Source: an uncultured cyanobacterium (GTDB lineage Bacteria; Cyanobacteriota; Cyanobacteriia; Phormidesmidales; Phormidesmidaceae). From it: a DNA stretch of 64,000 bases. A program made the position numbers and the translations under genes. Below, one piece after another: positions 13,969 through 21,883 of this stretch; within the stretch, counting starts at the first letter, position 1, and every line of letters begins with the position of its first letter. The DNA lies in the NCBI GenBank assembly GCA_963793265.1, contig CAWBZI010000006.1, positions 224,001 to 288,000 on the forward strand, given 5' to 3'. The notes beneath the pieces are model-generated. The model had not been told where the DNA came from. It saw only the letters and a list, made by a program, of their open reading frames with translations, and did no database searches.

Positions 13969-14760
13969 CTAATTAAGAACAGCCTGAACAGTAGACACGG
14001 CAGGCGATAAAACGTCAGTCAAACCGGCTGAGGCTAGTAGCTGGTTCCACTCAGCGGCGATCGCCTCATTGTCGGGTTCAGCCTGGCGCAGTTCATTCAG
14101 CACAATTGCTGCATCGTGCCATAGATTAGCCTGCTGATACAAAAGCCTCGCCTCCATCAGCGGCTCGGCAATGGCTAGCTGCGTTGCAAAGCCCGTGGGC
14201 ACCGACTGCTGAGCAAACCAGTCAGAGGGCGCTACCCGGCGAATACTGCCATAGACAGTCGTGTCGTTTGAGCGATCGCTCACGTTAGGAACAATAGAAA
14301 AATACCACTGATAGTTTTCGTCTGGCGTTAGGGCAGGCATATCAGGCATATCAGCGATGCCCACCGTTACAAAGCCAGCTTCTTTGCTAACCTCAAAGGT
14401 TTTCTCGTAGACTAAAGCGTCGTTGCTATCGCGCAAAACAAACTCAGCGCTATTGTTAGATGCCATCTCAGGAACGTAAAACAATAGCGTAGGATGAGAG
14501 GCGGTGGTGATACTTAAAGGGGCAGGCGTCGTGATAGCAGTTAAAGCGCCGAGCGTATTAGCAAACACAGTTTCGCTGCGAGTGCCCCCGCCTATGCGTC
14601 GGCCAGGCACGCCGTATCGCGAGTCAGAAGCGTCTTCTTTAGCGCCAAGGTTGGATTCTAGAATGGACTGAGCACGGGCAGCCGGAGCGGCTATGCCCCC
14701 GATTACAAAACTACTTAAGCCAAGCAGCAAAAACGAACGAACGAATGGTGTAGTCATCAT
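13969..14760 (-). CDS. DUF928 domain exported protein
   Basis: Signal peptide (AARA); PGRRIGGGTR, HPTLLFYVP, YQWYFSI, LWHDA, WNQLLASAGL. Confidence 0.85.
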   Translation of the reverse strand: MMTTPFVRSFLLLGLSSFVIGGIAAPAARAQSILESNLGAKEDASDSRYGVPGRRIGGGTRSETVFANTLGALTAITTPAPLSITTASHPTLLFYVPEMASNNSAEFVLRDSNDALVYEKTFEVSKEAGFVTVGIADMPDMPALTPDENYQWYFSIVPNVSDRSNDTTVYGSIRRVAPSDWFAQQSVPTGFATQLAIAEPLMEARLLYQQANLWHDAAIVLNELRQAEPDNEAIAAEWNQLLASAGLTDVLSPAVSTVQAVLN

Positions 14761-15270
14761 TATCTTCAAGTTTGATTGTTGTTTATGAACAGGACTACTT
14801 AAGAATGCTGAAACCTTCCGTTAGATGCCAGATAAAACGTCCTGTGTTTGTGTGCTTATATTCTAGGAAAACTGTCCGAATTCATAAATAGAGAAGATAC
14901 CGAATCTCCAAATGCAGATAGTTGTCTCTTAAGCCGTATTGTGCATAAAGACACTGTGCTGCGTGTGGCATGAATCAACCGAAGGTTAGAGTTTTTACGC
15001 CCATAGAAAAAGAAAAGTAAGAAAGCATATTTCTCACGATTACGACGCTTTGCTACTGATAGCCTCTGCAAGCAACGAAATAGAATCTTGAGAGCGTTTA
15101 CCACATCTTTATATCTATCAGTATGTATCTAATAGAAGTGCGTTTTTTTACATACCAAACACGCAATTACTGATTGCTCTTGAACCGAGTTCGTATTATT
15201 ATCCAAAGGAATTTAAAGAATACTTAATGTTTCTTTTAATTCAACCAACTAATTTTAGAGGAGTGTACGA

Positions 15271-15465
15271 ATGAAGTCTGTTATCAGTAAGTCGCTAACG
15301 ATTTCTTTGGCAGTTGCCGCTGCGCTTGCCCTGCCTACGGCTGTCAAAGCACAGGCAGATAGCATGGTAGAGAACGAGACAGCGATCGCGACTATCGAAG
15401 AGAATATTAATACTGAAACCAACTGGTGCTTCAGGGTTCCTGGCTACGGATGGGTATGCGGATAA
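15271..15465 (+). CDS. Small exported peptide precursor with C-terminal Cys-x9-Cys aromatic core
   Basis: AGAGGAG RBS at 15257-15263; Sec signal ending AVKA; acidic spacer; C-terminus WCFRVPGYGWVCG; terminator follows. Confidence 0.8.
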   Translation: MKSVISKSLTISLAVAAALALPTAVKAQADSMVENETAIATIEENINTETNWCFRVPGYGWVCG

Positions 15466-15506
15466 GTTTAGTTTCTCTGTAGCATCTGTCTTTAGATACG
15501 CATTAG

Positions 15507-15545
15507 AAAGGGCCTTAAGTTCTAGTTAGCTTAAGGCCCTTTTTT
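15507..15545 (+). terminator. Intrinsic terminator after the peptide gene
   Basis: 13-bp perfect stem aaagggccttaag/cttaaggcccttt followed by T-run. Confidence 0.85.
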
Positions 15546-15704: not shown

Positions 15705-17951
15705 ATGTTCAAAAAGTGTTCTTTTATACTTTTTTATTGGAGCAGTTTCTACGCTTTGTGGAGCGGCCCGTCGCTATCGGTAAAAGGTGAGCCCTCCGCT
15801 ATTTATACGGACGGAACAACCCAAACAAATATCACTGGAGACTCAACCTGCCTGTCAGGGTGCACTATCTCGGGCGGCACCCGTATAGGAGACAACCTGT
15901 TTCACAGCTTCAGCGAACTCAGCATACTTGAAAATACGACGGTCACCTTTGCAGATGGCGGTGCAGCTAATATTTTTGCCCGCGTTTCTGAGAGAGCCTC
16001 TTTAGTTGACGGTACGCTAGCGGTCGCTGGAAGCACAGATGCCAACTTCTTCTTAATTAACCCTCATGGAATTGTTTTCGGCCCTAACGCGGTGCTCGCA
16101 ACAGCCGGATCCTTTGTCGCGAGCACTGCTGAGAGCATCATCTTTGCAGATGGCGCGCAATTCAGCGCCACTATTAATACACTTCCTGTACTTATAGTGA
16201 GTGCGCCTATCGGATTACAGTTTGGCTCAAACCCAGGCAGCATCACGAATCGATCGCAGATCGCTCAGGCAGGATTTTCGACTGGGCTACAGGTCAGTAG
16301 CGGACAGACGCTATCGCTAGTGGGGAGCGGCGTCTATTTAGAAGGAAGTAGTCTCACAGCGAGTAGCGGGCAAATAGCCATTGGGAGTGTCAGTGCTCAC
16401 AGCAGCGTTTCTCTGCTGTCTGATTTGACAGTAGAATACTCGGATACATCGGGCTTTGAAGATATTTACCTAACGCCCAGAGCGCTAATAGATGCTAGTG
16501 GAAACGAAGGACATATCTTTATTCGGGGTCGTAATATCGTTTCAGAAGGTGCTGCAATCGCAAACATCACCGCTGCCAACGCGACTGCTGGCTCTGTAAC
16601 ACTTGTATCCGACGAGACTATAGACTTCACCGGAGGAGGAATTTTCCTTTCTCCTGCGTTCGGTAGCGCCAGCGATGGTGCAAACCTGGTGATTTCTACT
16701 AGCGAACTTGCGTTGAAAGGCGGCGCGATCATTTCAAGCGGTACGTTTGGCGCAGGCAATGGTGGAAGCCTAGCCATTGACGCCTCAAATTCTGTTGAGC
16801 TAAGCGGCACAGGGCTGAGCTTTCCTACGCTTATAACGTCCTCTACAGAAGGCAGTGGCACGGGAGGGCAAATCACTATTGATACAAACAGGCTAGCTAT
16901 TACAGATGGCGCTCAAATACAGGCCATTGCTTATAGTCAGGGAACCGGTGGAGATATCACCATCCATGCAGATGAACGCGTTGACATCGCAGGCACTGAG
17001 GAGACAGCTTCTATTGGCACATCTATCAGTGGTATCTCAGCAGCTTCAGGTATAGAAGGTCTGCCTTTTCAGCCCACAGGATCAGGAGGCAGCATATCTA
17101 TCACGACTGACAGACTAACGATTAGCGATCGCGCTCAGGTATCGGTTAATAGCTTAGGGCAGGGGAACGCAGGAGATTTGAATGTTACGGCTCGTACTGT
17201 TCGCCTGGACAACAACGCTCAGGTCACAGCGACAGCGGCCTTTGGCAACGGCGGGAACCTTTATTTAGAGGGGTTGGAGACGCTCTTATTGCGTCGAGGA
17301 AGCGTAATTTCTACTCAAGCAGGAATTAGCGATGGGCAGGGCGATGGCGGTAATATTTTTATCAATGCAGATTTTGTAGTGACTCGTTTGCTTGAAGATA
17401 GTGACATTGTGGCTAAAGCAGCACAAGGGCGAGGCGGCAATATTACGATTGATACAAGGGGTCTGTACGGGATTAGGCAGCGGCGGGCGATCGCAAACAA
17501 TCGAACCAACGATATTGATGCCAGCTCTGAGTTCGGCATTAGCGGCACCATTGAAATAAATCAGCTCGCCGCCGCCGCAGACCTAGAGGGTGCGATACTG
17601 GCAGAACGACCTTTAGAGACAGCGACAGTCGTTAGTAAGCGATGCGATGCTACTGGCAACCGATTTGTTGTAACCGGAAGAGGCGGCGTGCCAGCTTCTC
17701 CTAATAGCTCGGTAGAGATACATTCATTTTTAGATGACTTGGGAGAGAGCTTAGAAGGCGACACGGTAGCTATAGATAGTGAGGAAACTGCTTTTGAAGA
17801 GACTGTTTCTGAGACAATAGCCTCGGTAAAAGATGGCCATTGGGCAGAAGCGACCGGTTGGGGAACGGATGCAAATGGACAGGTCACACTGTTTTCAGCA
17901 AGATCGCAGGACAGTGCGGTGTCTCACATGGCAGGGCACTGCACAGGCTAG
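15705..17951 (+). CDS. Filamentous haemagglutinin N-terminal domain (TpsA-like) beta-helix protein
   Basis: ISGGTRIGDNLFHSF, FFLINPHGIVFGPNA, repeated GNGG/GTGG-xIxI units, C-terminal FVVTGRGGVP. Confidence 0.9.
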   Translation: MFKKCSFILFYWSSFYALWSGPSLSVKGEPSAIYTDGTTQTNITGDSTCLSGCTISGGTRIGDNLFHSFSELSILENTTVTFADGGAANIFARVSERASLVDGTLAVAGSTDANFFLINPHGIVFGPNAVLATAGSFVASTAESIIFADGAQFSATINTLPVLIVSAPIGLQFGSNPGSITNRSQIAQAGFSTGLQVSSGQTLSLVGSGVYLEGSSLTASSGQIAIGSVSAHSSVSLLSDLTVEYSDTSGFEDIYLTPRALIDASGNEGHIFIRGRNIVSEGAAIANITAANATAGSVTLVSDETIDFTGGGIFLSPAFGSASDGANLVISTSELALKGGAIISSGTFGAGNGGSLAIDASNSVELSGTGLSFPTLITSSTEGSGTGGQITIDTNRLAITDGAQIQAIAYSQGTGGDITIHADERVDIAGTEETASIGTSISGISAASGIEGLPFQPTGSGGSISITTDRLTISDRAQVSVNSLGQGNAGDLNVTARTVRLDNNAQVTATAAFGNGGNLYLEGLETLLLRRGSVISTQAGISDGQGDGGNIFINADFVVTRLLEDSDIVAKAAQGRGGNITIDTRGLYGIRQRRAIANNRTNDIDASSEFGISGTIEINQLAAAADLEGAILAERPLETATVVSKRCDATGNRFVVTGRGGVPASPNSSVEIHSFLDDLGESLEGDTVAIDSEETAFEETVSETIASVKDGHWAEATGWGTDANGQVTLFSARSQDSAVSHMAGHCTG

Positions 17952-20588
17952 ATGAAAAAACAGCGGCGCGTTCTCAGGCTTTTATTTGCAGCGCTTTTAG
18001 GCGTGCTGTTAGAGATGGGGAGTGGAAACTATCTTTCTATCGATGATGCCGCATCAGCACAAGCTGCTGTTCAACAAAGGCAATCTCAGCAGATGGAGAA
18101 GCAAGCGGTTGAGCAGCAAGCGGCACAGGCTAGACAGCTATATATTAACGGCCAGTTTTTGGAGGCGATCGCCCAATGGCAGGCGATCGCGCAAACGTAT
18201 GCCGCTCAGCAAAACACACTCGCTCAAGCCAGCGCCCTTAGCAACCTTTCACTGAGCTACCAGCAAATAGGCCAGTGGGATAGCGCGCGCGGGGCAATCG
18301 AGCAAAGCTTGGCGCTCATTCAGTCTACGACAAACAACAGTCAGTCTCAGAGTCAGCAGTGGGCTGTGCTAGCTCAAGCATTAATGACCCAAGGCAGACT
18401 AAAGATGTCTGTAGGACAACCTGAGCAGGCGCTAGCCATTTGGCAACAGGCTACCGAAGCCTATCAAAAGAACAACAATACTATCGGTCAAAGTCGCGCT
18501 CAAATCAACCAGGCACAGGCGCTAAGAGAGCTTGGATTTTACCGGCAGGCGCTTGAGAAGCTGACAACAGTTACGGCTACGATAGACCCACAGCCGCCCT
18601 CACTGGTAAAAGCGATCGCACTTCGCCGCTTAGGAGAAGCCCTGCGGCTCAACGGCCAACTGTCCGAGGCTCAAACAACTCTTTTACAAAGCCTCGTGAT
18701 CGCTATTCAGTTAGAGAGCCCATCAGAAACTAGCGCAACACTATCAAGCCTTGGACATACCGCACGGGCTATAGGAGAGAATGACGCTGCTGAGACTTTT
18801 TACGCTAGAGCGATCGCAGCGCTTGGGCCAAACGCCTCAGCCAGGCAAAGCGTACCGATTCAGCTCGCTCAGCTACAGCTATATGTCAAAACTCAAAAAT
18901 GGACATTGGCGACCGAATTATTGCCCGCAATTCAATCGCAGTTTGACGAACTACCGCTCAGTCGAAAGGCTATTTTCTACGCGATAAACTGGGCAAACAG
19001 CTCAATAAAAATTATTCAGGCTAAGGCTCACACAGACATCAGCGCCGCCGGGTCAAAACCGGTCGCTCAGCAGCTCAAGCAGACAATCGAGCAGGCCCGC
19101 AGGCTGTCGGATATAAGCGCTGAGTCCTATGCGCTAGGCACGCTCGGCCAGCTATACGAACAAAATCAGCAGTGGGGTGAAGCCCAAGTCCTTACGCAAA
19201 AGGCGCTGAGCCTGAGCCTTGCAGGCAATGACGCAGAAATTTCCTATCGGTGGCAGTGGCAGACGGGCAGATTATGGCAGCATTCCAACAATCCCAAACG
19301 CTCTATTCCTAACGCGTTAGAAGCCTATTCTCAGGCGGTAGCAACCCTGTCACAGCTAAGAGGCGACTTGAGCAAAGCGAACAACACCATGCAGTTTTCG
19401 TTTTCAGAAGATGTGGAGCCGGTCTATAGGGAGTTTGTGAGCCTGCTGGTGCAGACTGATGATCTGTCGCCTGACTATCAAAAGAATTTAGCGATCGCTC
19501 AAAACACCATCGAATCTCTCCGGCTTGCTGAACTCGACAACTACTTTCAAGAAGCCTGTATAGACGTGCAGCCGGTAGATATCAGCCAGGTCGATCCAAA
19601 GGCAGCTATTATCTATACGCTCGTTCTTGACGATCACCTTTCAGTCATCTTGAAACTACCCAATCAGCCCTTACAGCATTTTTCAACAGATGTAGGCGCA
19701 CATGAGGTCGGCAAGCTAGCCAAACAAATTAGACAGCAGCTTGTTATTCGCAGCCGCAGGCAGTATTTCGAGCCTGCCAAAAGGATGTATGACTGGCTAA
19801 TTGCCCCTGCTAGAGAGGCGATTGAGCGCAGTGGTGTAAAGACATTAGTATTCGTGCTAGACGGGCCGCTACAGAGCATTCCGATGGCTGCGCTTTATGA
19901 TGGCGATCGCTTCTTAATTGAAGACTACGCTGTGGGCCTCACGTCCGGGCTAAAGCTGATTAACCCTCAGCCCTGGCAGCGCTCAAACCTGAAGGCATTA
20001 ATCGTAGGACTCACCGAGAGCAGGCAGGGATTAGTGCCGCTTCCTTATGTAGCGCAAGAAGTTGAACAGATTAAGGCTAATGTTAGAAGCAACAATCTTC
20101 TTTTAAATCAGAACTTCACCTATAAAGCCCTGTCTCGAAAGCTTAAGTCTTCGCTATACCCTATTGTTCATATAGCAACGCACGGTAGGTTTGGATCTAC
20201 GCCAGAAGAAACGTACTTAGTCGCCTGGGATGAACGGATTAACGTGCGCGAGGTGAATCGGATGCTTCAGGCTAATTTGGGTAGCAGGCAAGGCATAGAG
20301 CTATTAGTGTTGAGCGCCTGTGAAACCGCTAGCGGCGACCAAAAGGCAGCATTAGGGTTAGCGGGCGTCGCTATTAAAGCAGGCGCGCGCAGTACGTTAG
20401 GATCGCTTTGGGCCATTCAGGATGAAGCGACTGCTGAATTTGCAGGGCAGTTTTATCAGCAGCTTGCCCAGCCAGAGGCTACCCGCGCAGGCGCACTGCG
20501 AAAGGCGCAACTGAAGCTGCTAAAAGACCCAGAATATAAGCATCCTATCTACTGGGCACCTTACGTTTTATTAGGAAGCTGGATGTGA
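17952..20588 (+). CDS. TPR-CHAT (caspase-like) protease
   Basis: TPR helices; IVHIATHG and LVLSACETA (His/Cys dyad); [14 protein letters not shown]; hydrophobic N-terminus. Confidence 0.92.
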
Positions 20589-21796
20589 GGTGGCAAATTC
20601 TAAAGGGCTTTGGTCACGGCGGTGTCTGATGGGAATAGCTGGCCCCTGGCCATTGCCGACGAGAGCAGCGGTTTTTTCTAGGGCCGTTCGTAGCCGTTTG
20701 GCCGCGTAGATAGACATGTCACGGGGGACGCTAATGCGATCGCGCAAATACCGCAAACCCACATCGCTCCCACCAGGCGGCATACACACCTCTCCCGTCA
20801 TCATGCTAGTTAGGGCACACCGCAGCGCCTCATCAAACAGCGCTTGTCTAACGGATTGGCCCGCATAATATTTTGCCGATGCTTAAGCACCCGATGCAGC
20901 GCCTCAGCCTTAGAACTCTCCGGTTCAGGATAAGTCACATCCGGCATGTTCTCCCAGGGGCCTTCATCCACTCTCTTTTGATTGCCCGCCGTCTGCGGTT
21001 CGCTATTCTCGTAGCAGCCCCCCATTTGCGGCGGCAGGTCATGAGCGTGCGTATGAAAATCGCTCTGCGTGCCTCGATACGTAGAACGGCTCTCCATCGC
21101 ATCAAACCAGGCCGACAGACGAGGATTCTCTTCTCTAAGAGAATAGCCTTTGTAGTAGTACAAACTGGCGTTCATTCGCTCTACGTAGGGCGTAAAAACA
21201 ATATCTGCAATGCTGAAGTCTTCTAAAAAGTAAGGCCCTGGCGTATTGCTTAAAGCGGCCTCTACCTTAGCGACGACGGCTAAAAACTGCGCTCGATTAC
21301 TTTTCTCCTGCCCAAACCATCCGCTAGGCTGACACAGCCACCCGCACCAAGCTCGAAACAATTCTCTCTCTAGCTGCCGCATTGGCAACACTTTAGGATG
21401 CTGCATACTATAACCCAAAAGCGCTAACGGGCCAAAAGCATTCTCTAACGCCATGAGAATATCGTCGCTTTCTGTGATGACTCTTCCATCTAGCTCAAGC
21501 GCAGGCAGCATCCCAGAAGGCACCTTTTTTTTATACCAGTCTTCTTTTGTTCCATAACAGAACATCGTGACTTTTTTGATACGATAGGGAATTTGCTTTT
21601 CCTCTAGCCACAGCCATACCTTCTGGCAGTAAGGGCACCAGGCATGATTGTCTCGATAGAGCGTTACTCGCACATCTGACTCAGCTTTACCAAACAGACG
21701 CAGCCGGGCTTGGGCGTTAGTTGGGCCATTAACGGTATCAGTTTTAAAGTCGGTTAGAGCTTCTAGGTCTGACCATTCAAGCGGGGCAATAGGCAT
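20571..21796 (-). pseudogene. Glutathione S-transferase family gene split by a single-base frameshift near 20843 (pseudogene or sequencing error)
   Basis: [13 protein letters not shown] motif; after ANPLD the protein-like sequence [18 protein letters not shown]...RDMS continues in another frame, joining ORF 20571..20804. Confidence 0.75.
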
Positions 21797-21883
21797 AGGT
21801 AACAATAGCTGCGAAATCGGGCTGCGAAATCGGGCGTTAAAGAATGCATTTCAGTATAGCGCTATGCCATAATCACAAGCTTT

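Follow-up and report, generated by a model that had tools for sequence, protein, structure and literature searches.

Gram-positive pheromone systems, among them agr AIP, ComC/CSP and the RRNPP peptides, encode small leader-bearing precursors beside a protease and a membrane receptor. The heterocyst inhibitors PatS, PatX and HetN share an RGSGR motif. Membrane-active hairpin antimicrobial peptides (AMPs) such as protegrin, tachyplesin and arenicin are typically strongly cationic, with a charge of about +4 or more.

Several proteases of the caspase-like fold have been described. HetF of Anabaena PCC 7120 cuts PatU3 after Arg117 (PMC9457339). Separase cleaves after the Arg of substrates with the motif (S/D/E)xExxR and is inhibited by securin via a large hydrophobic residue at P1 (PMC10317155). 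The cut sites of craspase vary and lie after M or L (PMC11506125). DdvA of Myxococcus xanthus is an anti-sigma factor in the membrane that serves a defence island and has a periplasmic TPR-CHAT part, and for a periplasmic TPR-CHAT the sensing of an unknown signal protein was proposed (PMC11506125). A CHASE2-DUF928 neighbourhood was noted in Nostoc (PMC5587647). In the literature, covered at the level of titles and abstract openings, no account was found of the input to a cassette of TPS, TPR-CHAT, DUF928 and CHASE2 genes.

The window analysed here is a stretch of 64,000 nucleotides from an uncultured cyanobacterium of the Phormidesmidaceae (contig CAWBZI010000006.1). It contains a member of an undescribed peptide family that is tied to this uncharacterised signalling cassette.

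A small gene for a putatively exported two-cysteine peptide

The peptide gene lies at positions 15271–15465 of the forward strand and encodes a precursor of 64 aa, the same ORF that had been quoted in the first-pass annotation. The ribosome-binding site read there was recovered as well: the Shine-Dalgarno sequence AGAGGAG occupies 15257–15263 (+), 7 nt ahead of the ATG, and an SD-like GGAG/AGGA precedes the start codon in most of 19 peptide loci. Behind the gene, at 15507–15545 (+), the 13-bp-stem terminator proposed earlier is present as a perfect stem (15507–15519 with 15530–15542, 10-nt loop) followed by T's, so that hairpin and U tract resemble an intrinsic terminator. The hairpin has a folding energy of −33.6 kcal/mol (z = −4.9), and none of 200 shuffled sequences was equally stable. 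A simple terminator scan did not return it, the loop limit of the scan being 8 nt versus the 10-nt loop. Hairpins of varied sequence follow the gene in most of 23 peptide loci. A search for a conserved promoter motif on the peptide's own strand yielded none.

Purifying selection was indicated by pN < pS in all eleven ortholog pairs (pS 0.37–0.71, pN 0.08–0.33). The gene is single-copy in its own genome, where a crude filter for a signal peptide and two Cys was passed by 2 of 10,195 Met-started frames of 50–80 aa, with this peptide as the sole credible one. The homologs, the excess of pS, the SD-like motifs and hairpins in relatives and the rarity of such frames raise the ORF above chance, and it is confirmed as a real gene under selection.

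The precursor begins with a Sec-type signal peptide (residues 1–27; 15271–15351, +), recognised by inspection from its basic N-terminus, hydrophobic core and conserved AVKA/Q, the predicted cut site, and conserved in the alignments A1–A3. An acidic low-complexity spacer follows (residues 28–51; 15352–15423, +). The last 13 residues (15424–15462, +) form the core with a PG turn. The two Cys of the peptide, Cys53 and Cys63, and all of its aromatic residues (W52, F54, Y59 and W61) lie in this core, as had been stated before. Mean pairwise identity amounts to 0.53 for the signal, 0.25 for the spacer (over residues 28–46), 0.30 for the pre-core segment and 0.52 for the core scaffold; thus, constraint is weakest in the spacer, not in the core. 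AlphaFold2 predicted a confident hairpin for the C-terminus only (pLDDT 81–83), with strands at residues 53–56 and 60–63 and Cys53 and Cys63 at their ends, while the segment before the core had low pLDDT. Identity pattern, Cys pair and model therefore agree with the proposed architecture of signal, acidic spacer and disulfide hairpin, in which the disulfide is the deduced element. A search with the peptide model against known folds gave nothing at E ≤ 0.001.

Conservation of the Cys pair among homologs, on which the first-pass annotation had made its proposal depend, was found throughout: 48 of 50 non-identical sequences, the set used for Cys and charge counts, have exactly two Cys in their last 26 residues, and the other two have four. 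The Cys-Cys loop measures 9 residues in 35 of the 50, which carry 43 distinct cores. An all-pairs comparison gave no sign of positive selection on the core (pN 0.35 vs pS 0.69, saturated). In one of the family members, P0026 (G154, L027:1501-1740), an inserted Cys-RRGGGR-Cys accounts for four Cys; the RRGGGR recalls a DUF928 motif described below.

The family comprises about 50 sequences, whose source labels name Phormidesmis sp. and cyanobacterial MAGs. A search with the single sequence gave 7 homologs with E ≤ 1.1e-11. It was followed by a profile search with 24 matches, 21 of them true members after removal of three long proteins, and by a second one with 30 matches and 28 full-length members, one truncated and one unrelated match being dropped. 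Within the own genus, 17 of 39 genomes have true members, and so have two of four in genus g11; further ones come from G025, G518 and G514 (in G514 the N-terminal part at a contig end). In a second cyanobacterial family, the peptide is found in three of the four genomes of genus g144, i.e. in 3 of 48 genomes of that family. Three profile searches, over 401, 401 and 320 class genomes, yielded genus g144 as the only addition and no other clear member, at 15–21 candidates scored per genome, with fast-diverging cores and with weak matches (E > 7e-4) left mostly uninspected. A DNA pattern of the core, run over 401 genomes, hit 32 of them and was true only for known members among 30 loci read. The same kind of scan in metagenomes gave 82 stretches with no member among the 80 read, and a plasmid search for the peptide had no match. 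Two metagenome loci (L263:1501-1845, reverse strand, and L306) hold a 114-aa frame that lacks a signal peptide and has a similar Cys-x-PGFG-x-Cys at its end. The surroundings do not look like coding DNA, and the similarity is probably due to chance.

No Pfam or NCBIfam match above cut-off was obtained for 41 members and no PADLOC match for the peptide. The ESM Atlas returned leads below 0.9 only ('Secreted protein', PagK and 'Osc7112_2153 family'). Titles and abstract openings in the literature contained no description of the peptide family, and Osc7112_2153 was likewise without a paper.

The TPS/TPR-CHAT/DUF928/CHASE2 neighbourhood

Directly after the peptide, an exoprotein of 748 aa with a TPS (haemagglutination-activity) domain is encoded at 15705–17951 (+; PF05860, E 6e-39; TIGR01901). 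Next to it, at 17952–20588 (+), lies the gene of a TPR-CHAT protein of 878 aa with an N-terminal signal-like helix (PF12770, E 1e-61). An exported DUF928 protein is encoded divergently from the peptide at 13969–14769 (−; PF06051, E 4e-41). It had been noted earlier that no RiPP-modifying enzymes are adjacent; this holds for the neighbours DUF928, TPS and CHAT, but the exported CHAT protease two genes downstream had been overlooked.

His744 (20181) and Cys790 (20319) of the TPR-CHAT protein are invariant across 26 orthologs. Its model resembles DdvA (PDB 8ROT/8RW5, the top fold matches), craspase Csx29 and separase, and by sequence and predicted structure the protein is classified as a CHAT protease of clan CD with an intact His-Cys dyad. 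Its Asp824 is a candidate counterpart of the S1 Asp in separase. Searches of PDB sequences with single CHAT and DUF928 sequences gave nothing; a CHAT profile matched TPR proteins and the TPR part of DdvA. A complex prediction for TPR-CHAT (residues 45–878) with the peptide (residues 30–64), the sole pair modelled, reached a score of 0.01, which speaks neither way.

About 110–150 nt upstream of DUF928, or 110–190 nt over most genus g1 loci, a strongly conserved promoter-like element (14872–14909, −) has the core CGGTATCTTCTCT.TTTAT and the consensus CGGTATCTTCTCTGTTTAT. It was found at 13 of 19 loci by exact word and at more by PWM, and peptide-less loci show it too. The own genome holds no second strong copy. 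The element may be an alternative sigma factor site. Behind a linker of low complexity, the DUF928 proteins themselves carry a near-invariant PGRRxGGGTR, in front of which (E/D)xxR, e.g. ETLR, is often present. This Arg-containing segment is an alternative candidate substrate of the CHAT protease.

Linkage of the peptide to the cassette is strict. A TPS-domain gene comes directly after the peptide in all 24 loci with readable downstream DNA (20 with long flanks plus G145, G398, G404 and G531) in two cyanobacterial families, although related genomes are no independent samples; contigs of G100 and G514 end too soon to be counted. The order peptide, TPS and CHAT was observed in 20 of 20 fully read loci, 19 of them with the divergent DUF928 gene and one with a contig end in its place. 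The G398 peptide at a contig end appeared to be an orphan at first. Its contig has an exact overlap of 23 nt with a contig that starts with TPS, CHAT, DUF928 and a CHASE2 hybrid kinase, from which we infer that the two join. The same order from the peptide to the CHASE2 kinase is present in G404, and in G531 the TPS gene has two copies of the peptide gene ahead of it and a truncated ORF behind it, where the contig ends. Between the two families the cassette differs in gene order and in receptor output, and the peptide's position is unchanged.

Some of the loci show irregular reading frames. Between peptide and TPS gene in G398, a short frame (L194:2339-2494, reverse strand) reads as signal-peptide-like sequence plus five residues and may be due to chance. 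At L162 (G158) and L184 (G149, second copy), the TPS gene is broken up into two ORFs. In the window, a glutathione S-transferase-like gene after CHAT (20571–21805, −) encodes 331 aa, most orthologs having about 400–480 aa; the remainder of its C-terminus runs on in another frame, a frameshift or sequencing error.

CHASE2 receptors belong to the cassette less regularly. Of the 20 first-family loci, nine have an adjacent CHASE2 gene and seven, the window among them, do not, the rest being at contig ends. The receptors are of the type CHASE2-GGDEF-EAL in L001 and CHASE2-HisKA-HATPase-REC in G398 and G404. Elsewhere in the own genome, a CHASE2-GGDEF-EAL gene (G000:C1:604226-608680) has two DUF928 genes ahead of it and is the best own-genome match (42–47% identity) for all 14 cassette-adjacent CHASE2 proteins of other loci. 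It may be the displaced partner of the cassette or a paralog. Cassettes of this kind are common in cyanobacteria, and this genome has 10 TPS, 9 CHAT and 6 DUF928 matches, among them four apparent TPS-CHAT fusions of 1178–1976 aa. Two TpsB-like genes lie away from the window.

Presence and absence of the peptide were compared over the cassettes, leaving out G074 because of contig breaks. In G031, G097 and G109, peptide, TPS and CHAT are all missing together and DUF928-CHASE2 is retained, which may reflect one deletion of a contiguous block. G146 and G153 have other genes upstream of DUF928. DUF928, TPS and CHAT are present in G155, G159, G066, G090 and the second copy of G149, where neither the peptide nor a remnant was detectable. 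In a quick CHAT tree, the first four fall into a single nested clade (SH-aLRT 90), consistent with one loss as far as this tree goes. With crude filters, no such peptide was found at the nine other TPS genes of the own genome or at TPS loci of other origin (29 cyanobacterial, five of G398 and 16 on plasmids). The idea that a small peptide generally precedes TPS genes found no support at these 29 + 5 genome and 16 plasmid loci. Since five cassettes and most TPS genes do without it, and most cassettes work without, the peptide is an accessory of one cassette subtype and not an essential subunit.

The tandem duplication in G531 (L322:1501-2137) and the g144 species indicate which part of the peptide matters. 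Each G531 copy has a similar upstream region; their last 20 residues are identical despite 5 silent changes, while the spacers agree in 8 of 18 residues. Each of the three g144 species has a core of its own. From the identical ends of the G531 copies and the differing g144 cores, the functional unit is taken to be the C-terminal segment together with the residues immediately ahead of Cys1, which stays the same within a genome and differs between species.

Role of the peptide and rival explanations

Our preferred reading, held tentatively and at slightly less than an even chance, is that the peptide is a dedicated exported input to the TPS/TPR-CHAT/DUF928/CHASE2 envelope-signalling cassette. 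It draws on the strict TPS-CHAT linkage, the joint absence in three genomes, the identical ends in G531, the species-specific cores, the constant place of the peptide in both families, the invariant dyad and fold of the CHAT protein and the protein signal proposed for a periplasmic TPR-CHAT (PMC11506125). The peptide-less cassettes and TPS loci, CHASE2 adjacency in 9 of 20 loci only, an Arg before Cys1 in just 3 of 45 peptides and the lack of positive selection weigh against it. Export, disulfide, processing, partner and output are inferred along the following route. The peptide would be made from its own short, terminated transcript and exported via Sec, with signal peptidase I cutting after residue 27. 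In the periplasm, Cys53 and Cys63 would be oxidised to a β-hairpin with a 9-residue loop. The unstructured acidic spacer could then offer the xTExx-Cys segment to TPR-CHAT or another periplasmic protease for trimming. The hairpin, whose loop differs by species, might act as a self-made ligand for the TPS/CHAT/DUF928 module, with an output via the CHASE2 receptor. The receptor of the Phormidesmis-like lineage is a GGDEF-EAL protein (c-di-GMP), that of the second family a hybrid histidine kinase.

The candidate recognition or pseudosubstrate site is a T-E-x-N-W motif before the core (15412–15426, +). Cleavage near TETN/W, as suggested in the first-pass annotation, is possible by comparison with related proteases but not favoured, since HetF and separase cut after Arg, craspase sites vary and the conserved residue before the core is Glu. 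The best-conserved pre-core position is the Glu four before Cys1 (Cys53 in the window) and not the Asn: Glu occurs at −4 in 29 of 50 sequences by one count and, by another, in 25 of 45, compared with 0–6 at neighbouring positions. A legumain-like cut after Asn was down-weighted because Asn stands at −2 in 25 of 50 sequences only and known CHAT proteases prefer Arg.

If that Glu is read as P4 in analogy to separase, the residue preceding Cys1 takes the place of P1. It is Y in 11, G in 10, W in 9, V and R in three each and I in two of 45 sequences. In this register, the peptides of G404 and G531 would be substrate-like and the window peptide pseudosubstrate-like. A securin-like regulator could be derived from it, in which the uncleaved residues 28–64 bind the exported CHAT protease and keep it inactive until some stimulus displaces the peptide or brings about its degradation; an aromatic residue would replace the P1 Arg, and the members with ExxR-Cys, namely the G404 peptide and both G531 copies, would be cleavable substrate-inhibitors. 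The many Tyr and Trp at this position recall the hydrophobic P1 residue of securin (PMC10317155), the neighbouring CHAT resembles separase in its modelled fold, and a small, separately terminated gene could be expressed in excess over the protease. However, the motif is short with its Glu in only 25 of 45, the Gly of 10 sequences matches neither substrate nor inhibitor, cassettes with intact CHAT and no peptide exist, and the register itself is borrowed from separase by analogy. It would also leave unexplained why the loop is kept exactly within a genome and yet differs between species. This regulator is the main rival of the input reading, though an unlikely one.

A bolder reading would make the species-specific hairpin a cyanobacterial peptide pheromone for quorum or kin sensing, exported, matured by CHAT and read via DUF928/CHASE2 into c-di-GMP or a phosphorelay. 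In our estimate such a pheromone is possible, if doubtful.

The remaining explanations do without signalling through the cassette. The TPS gene is the most constant neighbour (24 of 24 readable loci) and the predicted core is a hydrophobic, aromatic two-strand hairpin, which could pair with or cap the β-helix of the TPS exoprotein or form a variable adhesin tip. Such a structural accessory or cargo is difficult to reconcile with the terminator-like hairpin between the two genes and with the many TPS genes that lack a peptide, and the tandem copies with identical core suggest that a diffusible product is being dosed, and not a subunit in a 1:1 ratio; it is accordingly rated as improbable. Dispensability in one cassette clade and the own promoter region and terminator would equally befit an independent small periplasmic protein, e.g. 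redox- or metal-binding via its two Cys, that hitchhikes with the cassette. But wherever downstream DNA is readable the peptide is never away from a TPS gene, and two families, with cassettes of differing order, output and chromosomal neighbourhood, keep it in the same position; hitchhiking is thus considered quite unlikely. The least probable proposal goes back to the first-pass annotation, which had likened the layout to that of β-hairpin antimicrobial peptides: a bacteriocin-like hairpin freed from a neutralising acidic pro-piece. The order of signal, acidic pro-region and disulfide hairpin agrees with it, as do the net negative spacer in 42 of 45 measurable sequences and the amphipathic aromatic, variable cores. 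The analogy is not supported by the charge. The core has a net charge of 0 to +2 in 41 of 50 sequences (+1 in the window peptide), is negative in six and reaches at least +3 in three (+4 in one), which makes an antimicrobial role unlikely. Moreover, neither a candidate immunity gene nor a peptide transporter lies next to it, and the fixed TPS-CHAT linkage would be left unexplained.

A peptide of 13–20 residues linked to the cassette is cheap to synthesise and would give a direct handle on the activation of extracytoplasmic TPR-CHAT proteins and on the input to CHASE2 receptors. A self-made signal would mean peptide-based cell-cell communication in a Gram-negative phototroph, and a pheromone would provide a ligand for CHASE2 receptors as well as a peptide dedicated as substrate to an exported bacterial CHAT protease, the first of its kind. 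A securin-like function would be a bacterial parallel to separase control.

Comparison with known systems

Like the Gram-positive pheromones, the gene encodes a small precursor with a leader and a variable, species-specific C-terminal core beside a protease, with a candidate CHASE2 receptor adjacent in 9 of 20 loci and in G398 and G404, though not in the window. It differs in the Gram-negative host, in having a Sec signal and a disulfide hairpin in place of a thiolactone or a double-glycine leader, and in its neighbours, which are a clan-CD TPR-CHAT protein, a TPS exoprotein, DUF928 and CHASE2. Pfam/NCBIfam searches gave no homology of the peptide to AgrD/AgrC, ComC/ComD or RRNPP, and the neighbours are of other families. 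With β-hairpin AMPs it shares the prepropeptide with a C-terminal two-strand hairpin, predicted with a presumed disulfide; unlike them, its core is nearly neutral, bacterial and tied to a signalling cassette, with no fold match at E ≤ 0.001. Known cyanobacterial RiPP classes (cyanobactin, microviridin, lanthipeptide and Nif11/double-glycine) had no family match among 41 members, neither modifying enzymes nor a peptidase-ABC transporter are adjacent, and the leader is Sec-type by inspection. The RGSGR motif occurs neither in the window peptide nor in the family cores; P0026 has the RRGGGR insert.

The proteases offer further parallels. Separase and securin (PMC10317155) pair a TPR and caspase-fold protease with an unstructured acidic peptide in which xExx is followed by a hydrophobic residue or Arg, features that the modelled CHAT fold and the peptide in part resemble. 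The likeness is one of analogy: the system here is bacterial and presumably exported, and the mature peptide of 37 residues would have a disulfide hairpin and shows a partly conserved motif. HetF (PMC9457339) is also a cyanobacterial CHAT protease and has a specific substrate, PatU3, in a developmental pathway; by contrast, 42 of 45 peptides have no Arg at the candidate site, and HetF, in this account, involves no secreted peptide. In the EACC2-caspase-CHASE2 systems (PMC8195603), too, a caspase-fold protease and CHASE2 are linked, in gene neighbourhoods that are conserved in multicellular bacteria. Unlike here, caspase and CHASE2 form a fusion that has an ECF sigma factor and DUF1822 as its partners, and the accessible portion of the account makes no mention of a TPS protein, DUF928 or a secreted peptide. 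DdvA (PMC11506125) matches the neighbouring CHAT protein in being an extracytoplasmic TPR-CHAT with a His-Cys dyad, judged here by the signal-like segment. Unlike in DdvA, the CHAT protein would be a separate exported protein tied to TPS, DUF928 and CHASE2 and to a dedicated peptide gene.
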